24,000 bases of DNA from positions 4,117 to 28,116 of the forward strand of contig NZ_BSOG01000001.1 in the NCBI RefSeq assembly GCF_030160395.1. Direction: 5' to 3'. The DNA is from Chitinimonas prasina (GTDB taxonomy: Bacteria; Pseudomonadota; Gammaproteobacteria; Burkholderiales; Chitinimonadaceae). This document shows positions 12,165 through 16,029 of the stretch, one piece after another (within the stretch, counting starts at the first letter, position 1; each line of letters opens with the position of its first letter). Below the pieces are notes generated by a model. That model worked only from the letters and a program-made list of their open reading frames with translations. It made no database searches and was not told the DNA's origin. The translations under genes and the position numbers were made by a program.

Positions 12165-12178
12165 TTGATGCACATCAA
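12165..12178. promoter_or_regulatory. FNR/Anr-type box TTGAT-GCAC-ATCAA upstream of the beta-CASP operon
   Basis: Perfect match to the TTGAT-N4-ATCAA consensus, centred about 72 bp upstream of ATG 12244. Confidence 0.7.
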
Positions 12179-12243
12179 GACCCGCGCCATACGGTGTCAC
12201 ATACTGGATGCGATCTGACATGGGCGGACTAGAGGAGGGAAAC

Positions 12244-13611
12244 ATGAGCATGCAGCTGCAATTTCTCGGCGGTACCGGCACGGTTACCGGCTCCAAATAC
12301 CTGTTGGAAGCCGAGGGGATGCGCCTGCTGGTGGACTGCGGCCTGTTTCAGGGCTGGAAGCAACTGCGGCTTCGCAACTGGACCCAGCTACCGGTCGACC
12401 CGGCCAGCATCGATGCCGTCATCCTGACCCATGCCCACCTCGATCACAGCGGCTACCTGCCACTATTGGTACGCGAAGGCTATCGCGGTCCGGTGTACTG
12501 TACTTCGGCCACGCAGGAGCTGTGCGAGGTGCTCTTGCCCGATAGCGGTAGACTGCAGGAGGAAGAAGCCGGCTATGCCAATCGCCACCATTCATCCCGG
12601 CATGATCCTGCGCTGCCGCTCTATGATGAGTCGGACGCCCAGCGCTGTCTCAAACAACTCCAGCACTGCCCCTATGGCAAGGATATTGCGCTCAACCCTA
12701 AGCTGAAACTGCATTTCCGACCGGCCGGGCATATCCTGGGCGCCGCGACCGTCGAACTGACATCCAGCACCGGTCGCATCGTGTTCTCGGGAGATCTGGG
12801 TCGACCCGCCGATCTGGTGATGAAGCCCCCTGCTACTGTCGGCCAGGCGGACTGGCTGCTGGTGGAATCCACCTATGGCAACCGCAGCCACGAGCAGGAA
12901 GACCCTCGCGTGCAACTGGGCGAAATCATCCGCCGCACCGTCGCCCAGGCTGGCGTGGTATTGATCCCTACCTTTGCCGTGGGCCGCGCCCAGAACCTGA
13001 TGTACCTGCTGCACCTGCTGCGCGAATCGGGCGAGATACCCCAGGTCCCGGTATTTCTGAACAGCCCGATGGCGGTCGACGCGACCGAGATATTCCTACG
13101 CCACCAGGGCGAACACCGGCTCTCGCAGGCGCAATGCGCTGCCATGTGCCGCGACGTCACGGTGGTCTCTTCCCCGGAAGAATCCAAGGCGCTTAACCGG
13201 CGTCATGGCCCCATGATCATCCTGGCGGCCAGCGGTATGGCGACAGGTGGCCGGGTACTGCACCATATCAAGGCCTTCGCGCCCGATGCACGCAACACCA
13301 TCGTGTTTTCCGGCTTCCAGGCAGGCGGAACACGTGGCGCCGCTATGTTGGGCGGCGCCAGCCATATCCGCATTTTTGGCGAGGACATCCCTATCCGAGC
13401 CCGCGTCGAAAACGTGCCCAATTTCTCGGCCCATGCCGATGCCGATGAAATACTGGGCTGGTTGCGAGGCTTTCTGACGCCCCCCAAGCAAACCTTTGTC
13501 GTCCATGGCGAGCCAGATGCCGCCGATGCCCTGCGCAAGCGCATCGCGACTGAGCTGAACTGGAACGTCTGCGTCCCCGACTACCTGCAAAGCATCAAGC
13601 TCGAAGCATGA
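12244..13611 (+). CDS. MBL-fold beta-CASP family hydrolase (RNA-metabolising nuclease type)
   Basis: Motifs LTHAHLDHSGYLP (HxHxDH), VESTYGNRSH, FSAHADADEILGW and VVHGEP. The start is set at ATG 12244 behind GAGGAGGG. Confidence 0.9.
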   Translation: MSMQLQFLGGTGTVTGSKYLLEAEGMRLLVDCGLFQGWKQLRLRNWTQLPVDPASIDAVILTHAHLDHSGYLPLLVREGYRGPVYCTSATQELCEVLLPDSGRLQEEEAGYANRHHSSRHDPALPLYDESDAQRCLKQLQHCPYGKDIALNPKLKLHFRPAGHILGAATVELTSSTGRIVFSGDLGRPADLVMKPPATVGQADWLLVESTYGNRSHEQEDPRVQLGEIIRRTVAQAGVVLIPTFAVGRAQNLMYLLHLLRESGEIPQVPVFLNSPMAVDATEIFLRHQGEHRLSQAQCAAMCRDVTVVSSPEESKALNRRHGPMIILAASGMATGGRVLHHIKAFAPDARNTIVFSGFQAGGTRGAAMLGGASHIRIFGEDIPIRARVENVPNFSAHADADEILGWLRGFLTPPKQTFVVHGEPDAADALRKRIATELNWNVCVPDYLQSIKLEA

Positions 13612-15128
13612 TCAACCCGCTACCCCTACTCCGCTTTCGGCCACTGGGTATCGACACTGCCCACGAATACGTGGTCTACATGAATGCCGGCTGTCACATC
13701 TGCCGCTCCGAAGGGTTTGCTGCGCAGGCCAGGCTGGTGGTCAGTGCCAATGGTCGCAGCATCATCGCCACGCTCAATACCGTCAAAGGCAACCTGCTGG
13801 GTATAGACGAAGCCTCGCTGAGCCTATCGGCCCAACGTGCACTCAATCTGCACGAGCACGATAATCTTGCCTTCTCCCATGTACCGGTACTGCAGTCCGA
13901 GAGTTATCTGCGTGCCAAGATTTACGGCCAGCGGCTGGCACCCAGTGAGCTCAGCGCCATCATCAACGATACCGTTGCTGGGCGTTTATCCGATCTGCAC
14001 CTGGCAGCCTTCGTGTCTGCTTGCGCGGGGGAACGGCTGGATATCGATGAGACCGTTGCCCTTACCCGCGCCATGGTCGCTGCCGGCGCCACCCTGGATT
14101 GGGGCAGCCATCCCATTGTCGACAAGCACTGCGTTGGCGGCCTGCCTGGCAACCGTACCACCCCCATTGTGGTCGCCATCGTCTCGGCCTGTGGCCTGAC
14201 CATGCCCAAGACATCGTCGCGCGCCATCACCTCGCCCGCCGGCACGGCCGATACCATGGAAGTCCTGGCGCCCGTCAATCTGGACCTAGCTGGCATACGC
14301 CGGGTGGTAGGCAATACGGGGGGCTGTGTGGTCTGGGGCGGTGCCATGCAGTTAAGCCCTGCCGACGATATCCTGATACAGGTGGAAAGACCGCTGGACC
14401 TCGACAGCGACGGCCAATTGGTGGCCTCCATCCTCTCCAAGAAGCTCGCCGCCGGATCGGATCAGGTGTTGATCGATATCCCGGTCGGCCCTACCGCCAA
14501 GGTCAGAACGCTGGAGACCGCCACCCGGCTACAGGCGCGACTGCTTGCGGTAGGCACGCAGCTGGGCATCCATGTGCAGGTGATGATCACCGATGGCCGG
14601 CAGCCCATAGGCCGTGGTGTCGGCCCGGCGCTGGAAGCGCGCGATGTGCTGCAGGTGCTGCAGAATGCCCCCCAGGCTCCTGCTGATTTGCGCGAGCGTG
14701 CCCTGCTGCTGGCCGCCAGGCTGCTGGAAATGGGTGCCGCCGCCCCGCCGGGGCAAGGCATGGCGCTGGCCATGGCCACCCTTGATAACGGCAATGCCTG
14801 GCGGCAGTTCCAGGCCATCTGCGAGGCCCAAGGCGGTATGCGGCAAGTACCCCAGGCACCACTGACCCAGCCGGTGCTGGCCGTGCAAGCCGGACAGGTG
14901 CAAGACATAGACAGCCGTACCCTGGCCCGCATTGCCAAGCTGGCGGGTGCACCCCAATCGAAAGCCGCAGGGCTGGATCTGCATGTCAGGCTGGGCGATA
15001 CCGTCATTACCGGCCAGCCACTGTTCACCATCCATGCCGAAGCCCCAGGCGAACTACGCTATGCCCAGGCCTACGCCGCCGAACAAACCAGCGTCATCAC
15101 CCTGGACACCGACCATGGCCAAGACTGA
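13608..15128 (+). CDS. Thymidine phosphorylase family protein, long (about 500 aa) AMP-phosphorylase-like type
   Basis: DKHCVGGLPGNRTTPIVVAIV...SSRAITSPAGTADTMEVL matches the pyrimidine-nucleoside phosphorylase core. There is an extra N-terminal domain of about 90 aa. The ATG overlaps the upstream stop (ATGA at 13608-13611). Confidence 0.88.
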   Translation: MINPLPLLRFRPLGIDTAHEYVVYMNAGCHICRSEGFAAQARLVVSANGRSIIATLNTVKGNLLGIDEASLSLSAQRALNLHEHDNLAFSHVPVLQSESYLRAKIYGQRLAPSELSAIINDTVAGRLSDLHLAAFVSACAGERLDIDETVALTRAMVAAGATLDWGSHPIVDKHCVGGLPGNRTTPIVVAIVSACGLTMPKTSSRAITSPAGTADTMEVLAPVNLDLAGIRRVVGNTGGCVVWGGAMQLSPADDILIQVERPLDLDSDGQLVASILSKKLAAGSDQVLIDIPVGPTAKVRTLETATRLQARLLAVGTQLGIHVQVMITDGRQPIGRGVGPALEARDVLQVLQNAPQAPADLRERALLLAARLLEMGAAAPPGQGMALAMATLDNGNAWRQFQAICEAQGGMRQVPQAPLTQPVLAVQAGQVQDIDSRTLARIAKLAGAPQSKAAGLDLHVRLGDTVITGQPLFTIHAEAPGELRYAQAYAAEQTSVITLDTDHGQD

Positions 15129-16029
15129 TCAAACTGACATCGTCCTGCTGACCCTGCCTGGCAATGAAGCCCAAGCCGAGGCACTGGCCACGCGGTTGAA
15201 CTGCAACGCGGCCCCCGTTCTACTGCATACTTTCCCCGACGGCGAAACGCTGGTCACCGTGCCAGAGGGCTTGCAGGACCGTTGCGTGATACTGGTATGC
15301 ACGCTGGACCACCCCGACAGCAAGCTGGCCCCGCTGCTGTTCGCCGCCGATACCGCTCGCGAACTGGGCGCCCGCAAGGTGGGACTGGTTGCACCTTATC
15401 TGGCTTACATGCGGCAGGACATCCGCTTTGCCCCCGGCCAGGCCGTCAGTTCGCGTACCTTTGCCGCAGTGCTGTCGCGGCATATCGATTTTCTGGCCAC
15501 GGTCGACCCCCATCTGCATCGTAACCACGCCCTCGACCCATTGTTCAAGCTGCCCTGTGCCGCCGTAGCAGCTGCGCCCGCCATCGCAGACTGGATTGCC
15601 CAGGCCGTCCCCAAGCCCTTGCTGATCGGCCCCGATAGCGAGAGTGAACAGTGGATCGCAGCCGTCGCCAAGCGGCTGGGAGCGCCTTATCTGGTACTGG
15701 AGAAAACCCGCCGAGGCGATCGAGATGTCAGCGTCTCGGAGATCGATGCCGGCGCCTGGGCACAGCACACGCCCGTCCTGCTGGACGATATCCTCTCCAC
15801 CGCCCGCACCATGATTGCGGCGGTGCAGCGCCTGCGCGAAGCCGGCCTGGCCGCCCCCATCTGCATCGCCGTCCACCCCATACTCAGCGGCGATGCCCTG
15901 CCCTCACTCATGGCGGCAGGCGCCGCCAGGGTAGTCAGCTGCAACACCATCAGCCACAGTAGCAACGCCATCGACGTCATGCCGCTGATTGCAGCAGCGC
16001 TCACGCTGCATTGCCTGCCAGCAGCCTGA
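15115..16029 (+). CDS. Ribose-phosphate pyrophosphokinase (PRPP synthetase)-like protein
   Basis: Motifs FPDGE, VAPYLAYMRQD, VDPHLH, LLIGPDSES and PVLLDDILSTARTM (PRPP-binding loop). The start at 15115 overlaps the upstream gene by 14 nt; the tracked ORF starts earlier at 14932. Confidence 0.85.
   Translation: MAKTDQTDIVLLTLPGNEAQAEALATRLNCNAAPVLLHTFPDGETLVTVPEGLQDRCVILVCTLDHPDSKLAPLLFAADTARELGARKVGLVAPYLAYMRQDIRFAPGQAVSSRTFAAVLSRHIDFLATVDPHLHRNHALDPLFKLPCAAVAAAPAIADWIAQAVPKPLLIGPDSESEQWIAAVAKRLGAPYLVLEKTRRGDRDVSVSEIDAGAWAQHTPVLLDDILSTARTMIAAVQRLREAGLAAPICIAVHPILSGDALPSLMAAGAARVVSCNTISHSSNAIDVMPLIAAALTLHCLPAA

Follow-up and report, generated by a model that had tools for sequence, protein, structure and literature searches.

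A translationally coupled operon for a beta-CASP ribonuclease, an AMP-phosphorylase-like enzyme and a PRPP synthase paralogue in Chitinimonas prasina, probably induced at low oxygen

What would a bacterium do with an RNA-cutting enzyme made together with two enzymes that act on nucleotides and ribose phosphates, behind a binding site for an oxygen-responsive regulator? The question is raised by a 24,000-nucleotide stretch of the Chitinimonas prasina genome (here called the window), in which three genes follow one another on the plus strand: a 455-aa beta-CASP metallo-beta-lactamase ribonuclease (12244..13611; Pfam Lactamase_B, Beta-Casp, and RMMBL), a 506-aa long-form glycosyltransferase-family-3 phosphorylase (13608..15128; assigned from NCBIfam, a match to PDB 4GA5, a tree, and an active-site alignment), and a 304-aa class-III-like paralogue of ribose-phosphate diphosphokinase, or PRPP synthase (PRS), which runs from ATG 15115 to 16029 (NCBIfam NF005537). 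The beta-CASP open reading frame covers 12208..13611; its likely start, ATG 12244, is preceded by GAGGAGGG and agrees with the 455-aa gene call in a related metagenome contig, L083. An earlier note on this DNA had proposed that the three genes are translationally coupled, and both overlaps are seen directly in the sequence: an ATGA at 13608-13611 joins the ribonuclease and phosphorylase genes, and 14 nt are shared between the phosphorylase gene, whose stop codon is at 15126-15128, and the PRS-like gene. Pfam and NCBIfam uphold the families that the note assigned to all three. The locus is a genuine three-gene operon, in which the gene for an RNA-cutting enzyme is joined to genes for two enzymes of archaeal type that act on nucleotides and ribose phosphates.

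The perfect FNR/Anr box that the earlier note placed ahead of these genes is present at 12165..12178 on the plus strand (TTGATGCACATCAA; motif scan); ~72 nt separate its center from the start codon of the beta-CASP gene downstream. Perfect TTGAT-N4-ATCAA sites occur just twice in the whole 24 kb, the other (TTGATTGGGATCAA, 4617..4630, same scan) lying in the promoter of a tandem universal stress protein (USP) gene; with up to one mismatch allowed there are five sites against 0.28 expected, a number reached in none of 100 shuffles. Since a putative −10 hexamer, CATACT (12200..12205, plus strand), follows the operon box after 21 nt, the box center would sit at about −41, the geometry of class II FNR-activated promoters. 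In L083 the equivalent box is TTGATACACATCAA and the same hexamer follows at equal spacing, and the operon of Chitinimonas lacunae has a related box, TTGATTCTGGTCAA, upstream. The operon promoter has no −35 consensus, and a search of the region turned up no σ70 consensus promoter.

The USP gene (3704..4561, minus strand; Pfam PF00582, two Usp domains) likely starts at an inner ATG at 4540, which has the ribosome-binding site GGAGGAA ahead of it and gives a protein of 278 aa, as in the L083 gene call; its box is also kept in L083, and a −10-like TAAAAA lies on the minus strand 22 nt past it. In the present window, this gene is 7.6 kb from the triad. That the two were ancestrally divergent, as the note had supposed, is confirmed by L083 (93-95% DNA identity to the window, 97% identity in the phosphorylase), in which a spacer of 237 bp between the minus-strand USP gene and the beta-CASP gene contains both FNR boxes. 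Comparison of L083 with the window by blastn, together with a self-blast, delimits a 7.43-kb insertion of mobile DNA (4658..12090) that interrupts the former 237-bp divergent promoter region. The insertion is bordered by a direct duplication of 35-37 bp (4623-4657 and 12091-12127), is low in GC (0.51-0.53), and carries a DDE transposase fragment, a REP-associated tyrosine transposase, an IS110 transposase, a PT-HINT toxin fragment, and an ankyrin protein; it is outside the operon's function. Two observations could point to a nucleotide-depleting defense or toxin module, with the RNase and the nucleotide-cleaving enzymes directed at phage or competitors: the polymorphic-toxin fragments in this insertion next to the operon, and a likeness of the beta-CASP protein to Cas14, the nuclease of type VII CRISPR systems, although its 376 bits fall short of the cut-off of 800. 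We consider this reading largely refuted and highly improbable, given that the toxin fragments lie within a recent insertion missing from the 97%-identical relative L083, that none of the three triad proteins has a significant match to a PADLOC defense model, and that the neighbors are metabolic and stress genes, with no defense islands.

Evidence on when such an operon is expressed comes from experiments elsewhere, whereas gene structure, families, promoter architecture, conservation, and mobility come from the present analysis. In Bradyrhizobium diazoefficiens, the operon bll3117-bll3116-bll3115, whose orthology rests on product names and operon structure rather than sequence alignment, contains the same three gene families, and its low-oxygen control by an FNR-family regulator, which the note had proposed for the present locus, is documented experimentally: in microoxia, the proteins are up by a log2 fold change of 2.1-4.4 and the transcripts by 5- to 15-fold (PMC6515984), and in a fixK2 mutant expression falls 6.6-fold and 30.6-fold, with a FixK2 box at −74 (PMC9104804). 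The box lies ~70-75 nt ahead of the operon's first gene, as in the window, although it is degenerate (ATGATCTGGGTCAA) where that of the window is perfect, and the gene order is phosphorylase-PRS-RNase rather than RNase-phosphorylase-PRS. Regulation of the orthologous operon is already in published omics tables, the sole place from which this operon is known; our literature searches found no biochemical characterization, in agreement with the note's remark that no function has been established for the bacterial triad. A further parallel is provided by the lxa locus of Burkholderia cenocepacia and by the Anr/FNR and DosR regulons, in which an FNR/Anr-like motif is accompanied by low-oxygen co-induction of USP genes, a metal-dependent RNase (30-fold in B. 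cenocepacia; PMC3721108), acetate kinase, and a cation ATPase; lxa differs in being a 50-gene island, for which no phosphorylase or PRS paralogue is listed, rather than a compact three-gene operon. The explanation that we prefer, and to which we assign an even chance, is that the translationally coupled operon is a hypoxia module, class II FNR/Anr-activated, that channels RNA-derived nucleotides into ribose phosphates.

How well do the three proteins fit such a route? The best solved relative of the first is the Thermus thermophilus RNase TTHA0252 (292 bits). The present protein shares with TTHA0252 and other KH-less CPSF-type beta-CASP RNases the domain set, the lack of KH domains, a similar length, and all metal-binding and beta-CASP motifs; HxHxDH and the other motifs are kept in 42 homologues. 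Neither a genomic partnership with genes for nucleotide enzymes, as in the window, nor control by FNR, as the box here suggests, is a described feature of TTHA0252, and the RNase activity of the present protein is predicted from its sequence. For the phosphorylase, the N-terminal domain, the active-site segments, and NCBIfam scores agree with the note that it is of the long-form AMP-phosphorylase type and not DeoA. It is 37-41% identical over its full length to archaeal AMP/NMP phosphorylase compared to 30% for Escherichia coli DeoA, matches PDB 4GA5 with 369 bits compared to ~140 bits for PyNP/TP, scores above the cut-offs of PRK04350 (678 bits) and TIGR02645 (609 bits), and falls far under those of the DeoA models. 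Four segments (GGxPGN[RK], PKTSSRAITSxxGTAD, WGG..L[SA]PADD, and QPxG..xGPALEA) are common to it and the AMP phosphorylases but different in DeoA. The proposed likeness to the archaeal enzymes thus holds for architecture, since the enzyme of Thermococcus kodakarensis (PDB 4GA4-4GA6) has the same extra N-terminal, family-3 helical plus alpha/beta, and PYNP_C domains, but not for membership of the characterized family: with 482.5 against a cut-off of 535 for the AMP_phos equivalog TIGR03327, the protein belongs, as its sequence places it, to a bacterial sister clade, which counts against our preferred explanation. Bacterial members differ from the archaeal enzyme in a 3-residue insertion that gives a conserved CxxC in the N-domain and in a phosphate site with KHC (Cys) instead of KHS (Ser). 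The archaeal reaction, NMP + Pi → base + ribose-1,5-bisphosphate, is plausibly common to the bacterial protein.

The third protein, which the note had called a divergent PRPP-synthetase homologue, is indeed a class-III-like paralogue, as NCBIfam, structure matches, and motifs agree. It scores 395 with NF005537 (cut-off, 322) and far under the cut-offs of all class I equivalogs, and its nearest solved relatives are the class III enzymes of Methanocaldococcus jannaschii (1U9Y, the best match, 148 bits) and Sulfolobus (4TWB), with which it has ATP-site, catalytic-loop, and ribose-binding motifs in common (FPDGE, RQD, DPHLHR, the K-x-R loop, and DD are all kept). It differs from them in its separate NCBIfam subfamily, in scoring below the archaeal PRS equivalog (192 against a cut-off of 296), in a ribose-5-phosphate loop that reads S[TS][AG][RHQ]T in place of (D/S)TGGT, so that the second Gly is Arg, His, or Gln, and in the genetic coupling to a phosphorylase. 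Class III PRPP synthases are free of the allosteric, ADP-sensitive control to which housekeeping Prs is subject. The catabolic route that we prefer offers no obvious fit for a canonical PRPP synthase, and the conserved catalytic motifs and non-allosteric solved relatives would suit an anabolic or salvage role: the paralogue would be an ordinary PRPP synthase that ADP does not inhibit when energy charge is low, the phosphorylase would run synthetically (base plus ribose-1,5-bisphosphate or PRPP to NMP), a direction that has been proposed for its archaeal counterpart, and nucleotide pools would be rebuilt or rebalanced in hypoxia with the ribose not burned. That PRPP-using TrpD has the family-3 fold, and that the phosphorylase has weak TrpD matches in the NCBIfam search, adds to this view. 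We nevertheless hold it to be rather unlikely, because it leaves the tight coupling to an RNase and the recurrence of phosphoketolase-like, acetate-kinase-like, and GAPDH neighbors without explanation, and because it would be futile to break RNA down to NMPs and then make NMPs anew, unless this altered the base composition.

These neighbors emerged from a survey of 80 genomes from several phyla, in which denominators are assessable loci. The full triad is intact at 42 of 68 loci, with examples in Alpha-, Beta-, and Gammaproteobacteria, Planctomycetota, Bacteroidota, Verrucomicrobiota, and others; the beta-CASP gene is directly upstream of the phosphorylase gene at 52 of 72 loci, and a PRS gene directly downstream of it at 59 of 76. 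Of the conserved neighborhood of triad plus USP that the note suggested looking for, the triad held and the USP did not (within 10 kb at 8/80 loci only), and the pairing of the USP gene with the triad is lineage-specific. The same is true of an FNR-type core box directly upstream of the triad (4/76 loci only), a rarity beyond a few lineages that speaks against our preferred explanation. Recurring neighbors include a very divergent phosphoketolase-like enzyme (within 10 kb at 15/80 loci, or 8/73 without near-identical duplicates; a locus was counted if one tblastn match alone spanned 40% or more of the query), an acetate-kinase-like enzyme, an archaeal-type (type II) GAPDH (13/80, or 7/73 without such duplicates), and P1B ATPases. 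In favor of a link to pentose fermentation, the stop codon of the PRS gene in C. lacunae is overlapped by a phosphoketolase-like gene; at two further loci, L041 and L057, acetate-kinase-like and phosphoketolase-like genes stand between the phosphorylase and PRS genes; and the FixK2 regulon also holds a phosphoketolase-family and acetate-kinase-family operon, bll2518-2517 (PMC9104804). Against our preferred explanation, the neighboring phosphoketolase-like and acetate-kinase-like proteins come nowhere near the cut-offs of their families (128 bits against at least 777, and 259 against 486). In a difference from the archaeal AMP/NMP phosphorylase and the NMP shunt of its pentose bisphosphate pathway, the bacterial phosphorylase has no ribose-1,5-bisphosphate isomerase or type III RubisCO nearby and is partnered instead by the beta-CASP RNase and the PRS paralogue, sometimes with the phosphoketolase-like and acetate-kinase-like genes. 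That no such isomerase, RubisCO, or PhnN-type kinase is among the recurrent neighbors of the surveyed loci is a further point against our preferred explanation, which therefore does not account for the fate of ribose-1,5-bisphosphate.

The P1B ATPases suggest yet another role. They lie within 10 kb at 39 of 80 loci (33/73 non-redundant), often in the same co-directional run as the triad, with ICMT and DUF2933 genes; in Acidovorax and Roseovarius plasmid clusters the triad adjoins ATPases for copper or heavy metals, along with PPK2 and a copper oxidase. An island of at least 21 kb with the triad recurs in five genera at ~99% identity, the phosphorylase is present on 126 plasmids, and the CxxC that sets the bacterial phosphorylases apart could be a metal-binding site. 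The triad might thus be cargo of mobile stress islands centered on metal ATPases of the P1B type, mainly serving in metal or envelope stress, with FNR control here a secondary acquisition. This we judge improbable: no biochemical link is known between the three enzyme families and metal handling, FixI/CcoI-type P1B ATPases are themselves typical low-oxygen genes, the sole available expression data indicate oxygen limitation, and no metal genes lie near the operon in the window. Still, many plasmid and island copies stand in operons headed by P1B metal ATPases and have no FNR-type box upstream, so low oxygen is not a universal signal for the triad.

Returning to the hypoxia module, we infer every catalytic step of its route, the PRS-like reaction being the least certain and the weakest link. 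As oxygen runs out, and because of this respiratory energy too, FNR/Anr would turn the operon on. The TTHA0252-type metal-dependent RNase would degrade RNA to 5'-nucleotides, the archaeal AMP/NMP-phosphorylase-like enzyme would convert nucleoside 5'-monophosphates and phosphate to free bases and ribose-1,5-bisphosphate, and the PRS paralogue would interconvert ribose-5-phosphate, PRPP, and possibly ribose-1,5-bisphosphate. The pentose could then be reused in salvage or, in many genomes, pass through phosphoketolase-like, acetate-kinase-like, and type II GAPDH enzymes that are encoded nearby or regulated together with the triad, to yield ATP by substrate-level phosphorylation. The three-gene operon is common to many bacteria, and in the window it is probably induced by low oxygen.

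Our analysis supports a hypoxia-controlled module, here of the FNR type, that acts on RNA-derived nucleotides and ribose phosphates and is a bacterial variant made of known enzyme kinds. The operon consists of a beta-CASP RNase gene (ORF 12208..13611, plus strand), a phosphorylase gene (13608..15128, plus strand) and a gene for a PRPP-synthetase (PRS)-like protein (15115..16029, plus strand), and direct reading of the sequence confirmed both the overlap of the three genes and the perfect FNR/Anr box that the earlier note had placed before them. The first two genes meet at gcATGAtc (13608-13611), and the PRS-like gene opens with an ATG at 15115, sharing 14 nt with the phosphorylase gene, whose stop codon is the TGA at 15126-15128. 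The lack of a good Shine-Dalgarno sequence at either internal start is in keeping with translational coupling. The most likely RNase start, ATG 12244, is preceded by GAGGAGGG and is supported by the gene call in L083, a metagenome contig relative of the window, which gives an identical RNase length of 455 aa.

Only two perfect FNR sites were found in the 24-kb window by motif scan: the palindrome TTGATGCACATCAA at 12165-12178, upstream of the RNase gene, and box 1, TTGATTGGGATCAA at 4617-4630, on the side of a universal stress protein (USP) gene. With up to one mismatch there are five sites compared to 0.28 expected, a number reached in none of 100 shuffles; two of the three imperfect sites (9650 and 10279) simply belong to a 127-bp repeat associated with an IS. 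A candidate −10 hexamer, CATACT (12200-12205, plus strand), follows the operon box by ∼21 to 22 nt, which gives the box a centre near −41. Class II promoters activated by FNR have their box centred at about −41(.5), and the operon promoter has the features of this class: TTGAT-N4-ATCAA near −41.5 and a −10 element, with no convincing −35 element. The architecture of box and −10 is kept in L083, and on the minus strand TAAAAA lies 22 nt beyond box 1, ahead of the USP gene. No σ70 consensus promoter was found in the promoter region, within the operon or after it, no intrinsic terminator in or after the operon, and no Rfam family anywhere in the window. Directly downstream of the operon is an ANTAR response regulator gene (NasT-like; 16264-16848, plus strand), followed by a 447-aa porin-like gene, an ACT-domain gene and an NMT1_2/permease/ATPase ABC transporter resembling the nitrate/nitrite system NrtABC (20463-23823, plus strand).

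To place the operon in a broader perspective, we assembled 80 loci from several phyla by a scan of species-representative genomes, and counted triad genes by tblastn because our in-house gene caller missed some of them. The RNase gene is directly upstream of the phosphorylase gene at 52 of 72 assessable loci and the PRS gene directly downstream of it at 59 of 76, so that conservation of the neighbourhood, raised in the earlier note for the triad together with the USP gene, holds for the complete triad (42/68 loci, in several phyla) but not for the USP gene, which lies within 10 kb at only 8 of the 80 loci and is rejected as a defining trait of the module. Counted anywhere in the locus, the RNase gene is present at 53 of 68 loci and the PRS gene at 56 of 68. 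The tightest unit is the phosphorylase-PRS pair, and the order of the genes is not fixed: phosphorylase-PRS-RNase is seen in one locus of the set (L073) and, by the locus-tag order of published tables, in Bradyrhizobium (PMC6515984, PMC9104804). An FNR box universal to the triad is likewise rejected: a TTGA-N6-TCAA core occurs 20 to 250 nt upstream of the triad at 4/76 loci, compared to ∼1% expected per such stretch, an FNR-type box with at most one mismatch at 4/48 RNase-first loci, and none in two plasmid clusters. Perfect FNR boxes are plentiful in the loci overall (19 in 1.42 Mb), and boxes are found in the Chitinimonas lineage and in L008, L018, L020, L030 and L079. The 'Rickettsiales' MAG locus L026 carries seven perfect FNR-type boxes in 21 kb, almost all TTGAT[CT]GC[AG]ATCAA, and L020 is similarly dense; in both, the triad seems to sit within a large island under FNR control.

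In the window, the USP gene (two Usp domains; 3704..4540/4561, minus strand) lies 7.6 kb from the operon, and the claim that the two are ancestrally divergent was borne out by L083. There the order is minD-minE-Sel1-USP (minus strand), a 237-bp spacer containing both FNR boxes, and beta-CASP-phosphorylase-PRS, with a phosphorylase 97% identical to that of the window. Comparison by blastn with L083 delimits an insertion of 7.43 kb at 4658-12090, lower in GC than its surroundings, whose ends are a 35- to 37-bp direct duplication of the spacer (4623-4657 and 12091-12127) that includes half of box 1; despite the insertion, each of the two promoters has retained its own box. Usual target-site duplications are much shorter than this. 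The cargo comprises a DDE transposase fragment, a REP-associated tyrosine transposase (RAYT), an IS110-type transposase, a PT-HINT toxin fragment and an ankyrin-repeat gene. The RAYT gene (NF047646; 6254-7111, minus strand) is bracketed by 216-bp direct repeats that are 94% identical (5474-5689 and 6976-7191) and also by short inverted repeats of 24 to 27 bp. The 3' end of the IS110-family transposase gene (8596-9699, plus strand) recurs 500 bp downstream as a perfect 127-bp direct repeat (9578-9704 and 10207-10333), and the two copies enclose a 145-aa ORF (9734-10171, minus strand) with no family match. The minus-strand stretch 10434-11949 holds an orphan C-terminal fragment of the PT-HINT (polymorphic toxin/Rhs) type at 11242-11949, then a small ORF containing a tandem duplication of 67 bp (10952-11084) and the ankyrin-repeat protein gene (10434-10937), an arrangement reminiscent of a toxin-tip and immunity cassette left behind within the insertion.

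The first protein of the triad has the hallmarks of the beta-CASP family, with an HxHxDH metallo-β-lactamase (MBL) domain, the beta-CASP insertion and a C-terminal RMMBL motif (Pfam: Beta-Casp, 128.9 bits; RMMBL, 69.4 bits; Lactamase_B, 50.9 bits), and its THAHLDH, GH, SGD, ESTYG, LHH and SAHAD motifs are kept across 42 homologues. Its best solved relative is Thermus TTHA0252 (292 bits), followed by Cas14 and by archaeal and eukaryotic CPSF-type nucleases, and likeness to the RNase TTHA0252 suggests endo- and/or 5'-3' exoribonuclease activity. Membership of the triad in a defence system was rejected: against the PADLOC defence models the RNase gave only MBL-fold matches (E = 0.003 to 0.01) and the phosphorylase and PRS-like protein none, that is, no significant match for the three proteins. 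Both this reading and chance co-location of the genes are poorly supported.

The phosphorylase scores above the NCBIfam cut-offs of TIGR02645 (609 compared to 434.6) and PRK04350 (678 compared to 434). At 506 aa with an extra N-terminal domain, it differs from the DeoA (thymidine phosphorylase) type of ∼440 aa without that domain, and a DeoA/PyNP-type identity is also rejected by equivalog scores of 217.9 against 269, 171.1 against 570.7 and 150.7 against 559. In alignments, its signature segments are those common to eight archaeal AMP phosphorylases and different in DeoA, and the stretches that line the family-3 active site likewise follow the AMP phosphorylase type, unlike DeoA. It is 37 to 41% identical to the archaeal enzymes and 30% to E. 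coli DeoA, and matches the Thermococcus kodakarensis AMP phosphorylase structure (PDB 4GA5) with 369 bits compared to ∼140 for PyNP/TP. The AMP phosphorylase equivalog TIGR03327 aligns over model positions 21 to 490 of 500, the extra N-terminal domain included, but with 482.5 bits against a cut-off of 535. In a neighbor-joining tree of 15 diverse bacterial phosphorylases and the eight archaeal AMP phosphorylases, with E. coli DeoA as a distant outgroup, the archaeal enzymes form a clade with 100% bootstrap that leaves out all 15 bacterial sequences. The description of the enzyme as AMP phosphorylase-like thus stands as to its long form, its signature and its distinction from DeoA, but not as to membership in the equivalog or the archaeal clade. 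Compared to archaeal AMP phosphorylases, the bacterial enzymes have a 3-residue insertion that creates a near-invariant DCHVCRSEGF (CxxC) in the N-terminal domain (residues 28 to 37), and compared to both AMP phosphorylases and DeoA they have cysteine in place of the phosphate-site serine (KHC compared to KHS, residues 173 to 175). These cysteines may form a redox or metal switch. Taken together, the sequence comparisons support a bacterial counterpart of the archaeal nucleoside monophosphate (NMP) phosphorylase; our literature search found no assay for any member of this bacterial family or of the PRS-like family.

The third protein proved to be, as proposed, a divergent PRS and not the housekeeping enzyme: it belongs to the NCBIfam subfamily NF005537 (395 compared to a cut-off of 322; TIGR01251, 184 compared to 113), and housekeeping class I Prs identity is rejected by 58 to 120 bits against equivalog cut-offs of 297 to 536. 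It has the Pfam Pribosyltran_N and PRT domains and the FxDGE, RQD, DxH, K-x-R loop and DD motifs of PRPP synthases, which are conserved in 54 homologues, and among solved structures the class III enzymes of Methanocaldococcus jannaschii and Sulfolobus are nearest to it. What is altered is the 5-phosphate loop, canonically (D/S)T[GAC]GT, for which the family has the consensus S[TS][AG][RHQ]T[ML] and the window protein STARTM. HGPRT-type phosphoribosyltransferases offer a precedent for a basic residue there, so that the altered loop is no proof of changed function. A 2026 preprint defines many noncanonical bacterial PRPS classes without giving them a function. One PRS-like protein, in a Phaeodactylibacter MAG (L058, 11489-13072), has 527 aa and an extra C-terminal DUF3108-like region.

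A recurrent neighbor of the triad is a P1B-type ATPase gene (39/80 loci, or 33 of 73 non-redundant ones). A phosphoketolase-like gene, counted as a single match with at least 40% query coverage, is near the triad at 15/80 loci (8/73 non-redundant), an archaeal-type (type II) GAPDH gene at 13/80 and an acetate-kinase-like gene at 9/80. In Chitinimonas lacunae, three HSP20 genes precede the triad and a phosphoketolase-like gene overlaps the PRS stop codon, and at two further loci (L041 and L057) acetate-kinase-like and phosphoketolase-like genes lie between phosphorylase and PRS. Of the partner genes concerned (L086, 10395-12887; L057, 7320-8429; L071, 15993-17048), the phosphoketolase-like protein scores 128 bits against NCBIfam cut-offs of 777 to 1518 and the acetate-kinase-like protein 259 against 486; the GAPDH clearly belongs to the archaeal type (type II). 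The neighborhood as a whole has an 'archaeal enzyme' flavour. Other recurrent neighbors are ICMT-like, DUF2933, MFS transporter, PPK2, ABC1/UbiB, DUF6629, FtsH, ADH and ALDH genes. No ribose-1,5-bisphosphate (R15P) isomerase, RubisCO or PhnN-type kinase is among the recurrent neighbors of the 80 loci (isomerase and type III RubisCO being sought within 10 kb), and a constant fourth enzyme, be it an isomerase, Nudix hydrolase or phosphatase, is rejected by the heterogeneity of the operon partners, which include nitroreductase, flavodoxin-like reductase, 2OG oxygenase and MgtC.

An island of at least 21 kb, in the order ICMT-P1B ATPase-MFS-TPM-triad-DUF6629-ABC1-type II GAPDH, is 98.6 to 99.4% identical among Pseudomonas rhodesiae, Hydrogenophaga, Pigmentiphaga, Variovorax and Achromobacter (whole loci L055, L059, L060, L061, L067, L070 and L071), and a related cluster headed by PPK2 is found on the mobilizable Acidovorax plasmid p1-T1 (L081). 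The phosphorylase occurs on 126 plasmids, the annotated examples being long co-directional clusters with metal ATPases. The near-identical island and the plasmid copies show that the module is mobile, and the phosphorylase tree is discordant with taxonomy. The strong association of the triad with metal ATPases on mobile islands keeps alive a reading of the module as part of a stress island. A copy in a 'Citrobacter' MAG has no megablast match in E. coli or on plasmids, and that bin is probably misassigned.

Regulation of the triad is already visible in published tables. In Bradyrhizobium diazoefficiens, the counterpart genes, matched by product names and operon structure, are bll3117 (thymidine phosphorylase family), bll3116 (PRS) and bll3115 (MBL fold hydrolase), which rise in 0.5% O2 with protein log2 fold changes of 2.1 to 4.4 and transcript increases of 5- to 15-fold (PMC6515984). 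They are given as a single operon preceded by a FixK2 box at −74, and in a fixK2 mutant expression falls 6.6-fold for bll3117 and 30.6-fold for bll3115; an operon of phosphoketolase-family and acetate-kinase-family genes is listed in the same FixK2 set (PMC9104804). A low-oxygen locus of Burkholderia cenocepacia combines a metal-dependent RNase induced 30-fold, USPs, an acetate kinase and an Anr-like motif (PMC3721108). Oxygen- and regulator-dependent transcription is known only for the B. diazoefficiens counterpart. The low-oxygen module of the earlier note is partly supported, by the FNR-type promoter and the microoxia-induced counterpart, but not as a property of all loci, among which the FNR box is not universal.

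As to what such a module does, the main rival to our reading is a salvage role. We favour a catabolic use of ribose that would yield ATP, because phosphoketolase-like, acetate-kinase-like and GAPDH genes are linked to the triad. A bolder form of it, to which we give little credence, is that the triad and the very divergent phosphoketolase-like and acetate-kinase-like enzymes, which are fused to it in some genomes, constitute an undescribed bacterial fermentation of the 'pentose-bisphosphate type', drawing ATP from RNA ribose under anoxia. In such a variant, the PRS-like enzyme with its altered loop might, rather than making PRPP, move the C1 phosphate of R15P to ADP, or the reverse, and transfer to ADP would conserve the glycosidic-bond energy; a pentulose bisphosphate might be the direct substrate cleaved by the phosphoketolase-like enzyme, and redox gating of the pathway could come from the bacterial-specific CxxC and active-site cysteine of the phosphorylase.

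The survival without oxygen of bacteria that are strictly or mostly aerobic is an open problem that bears on chronic infection, nodules, biofilms and wastewater, and the module described here is widespread and mobile, with at least one counterpart strongly induced by hypoxia. Its parts lend themselves to experiment: three soluble enzymes, a defined promoter and, in B. diazoefficiens, a tractable organism with an already responsive operon. R15P metabolism has so far been associated with archaea and with bacteria of candidate phyla that are known from genome sequences alone. Should the phosphorylase prove to be an NMP phosphorylase, this metabolism would extend into mainstream Proteobacteria and would concretely connect the turnover of ribosomes and RNA with energy or salvage in dormancy.
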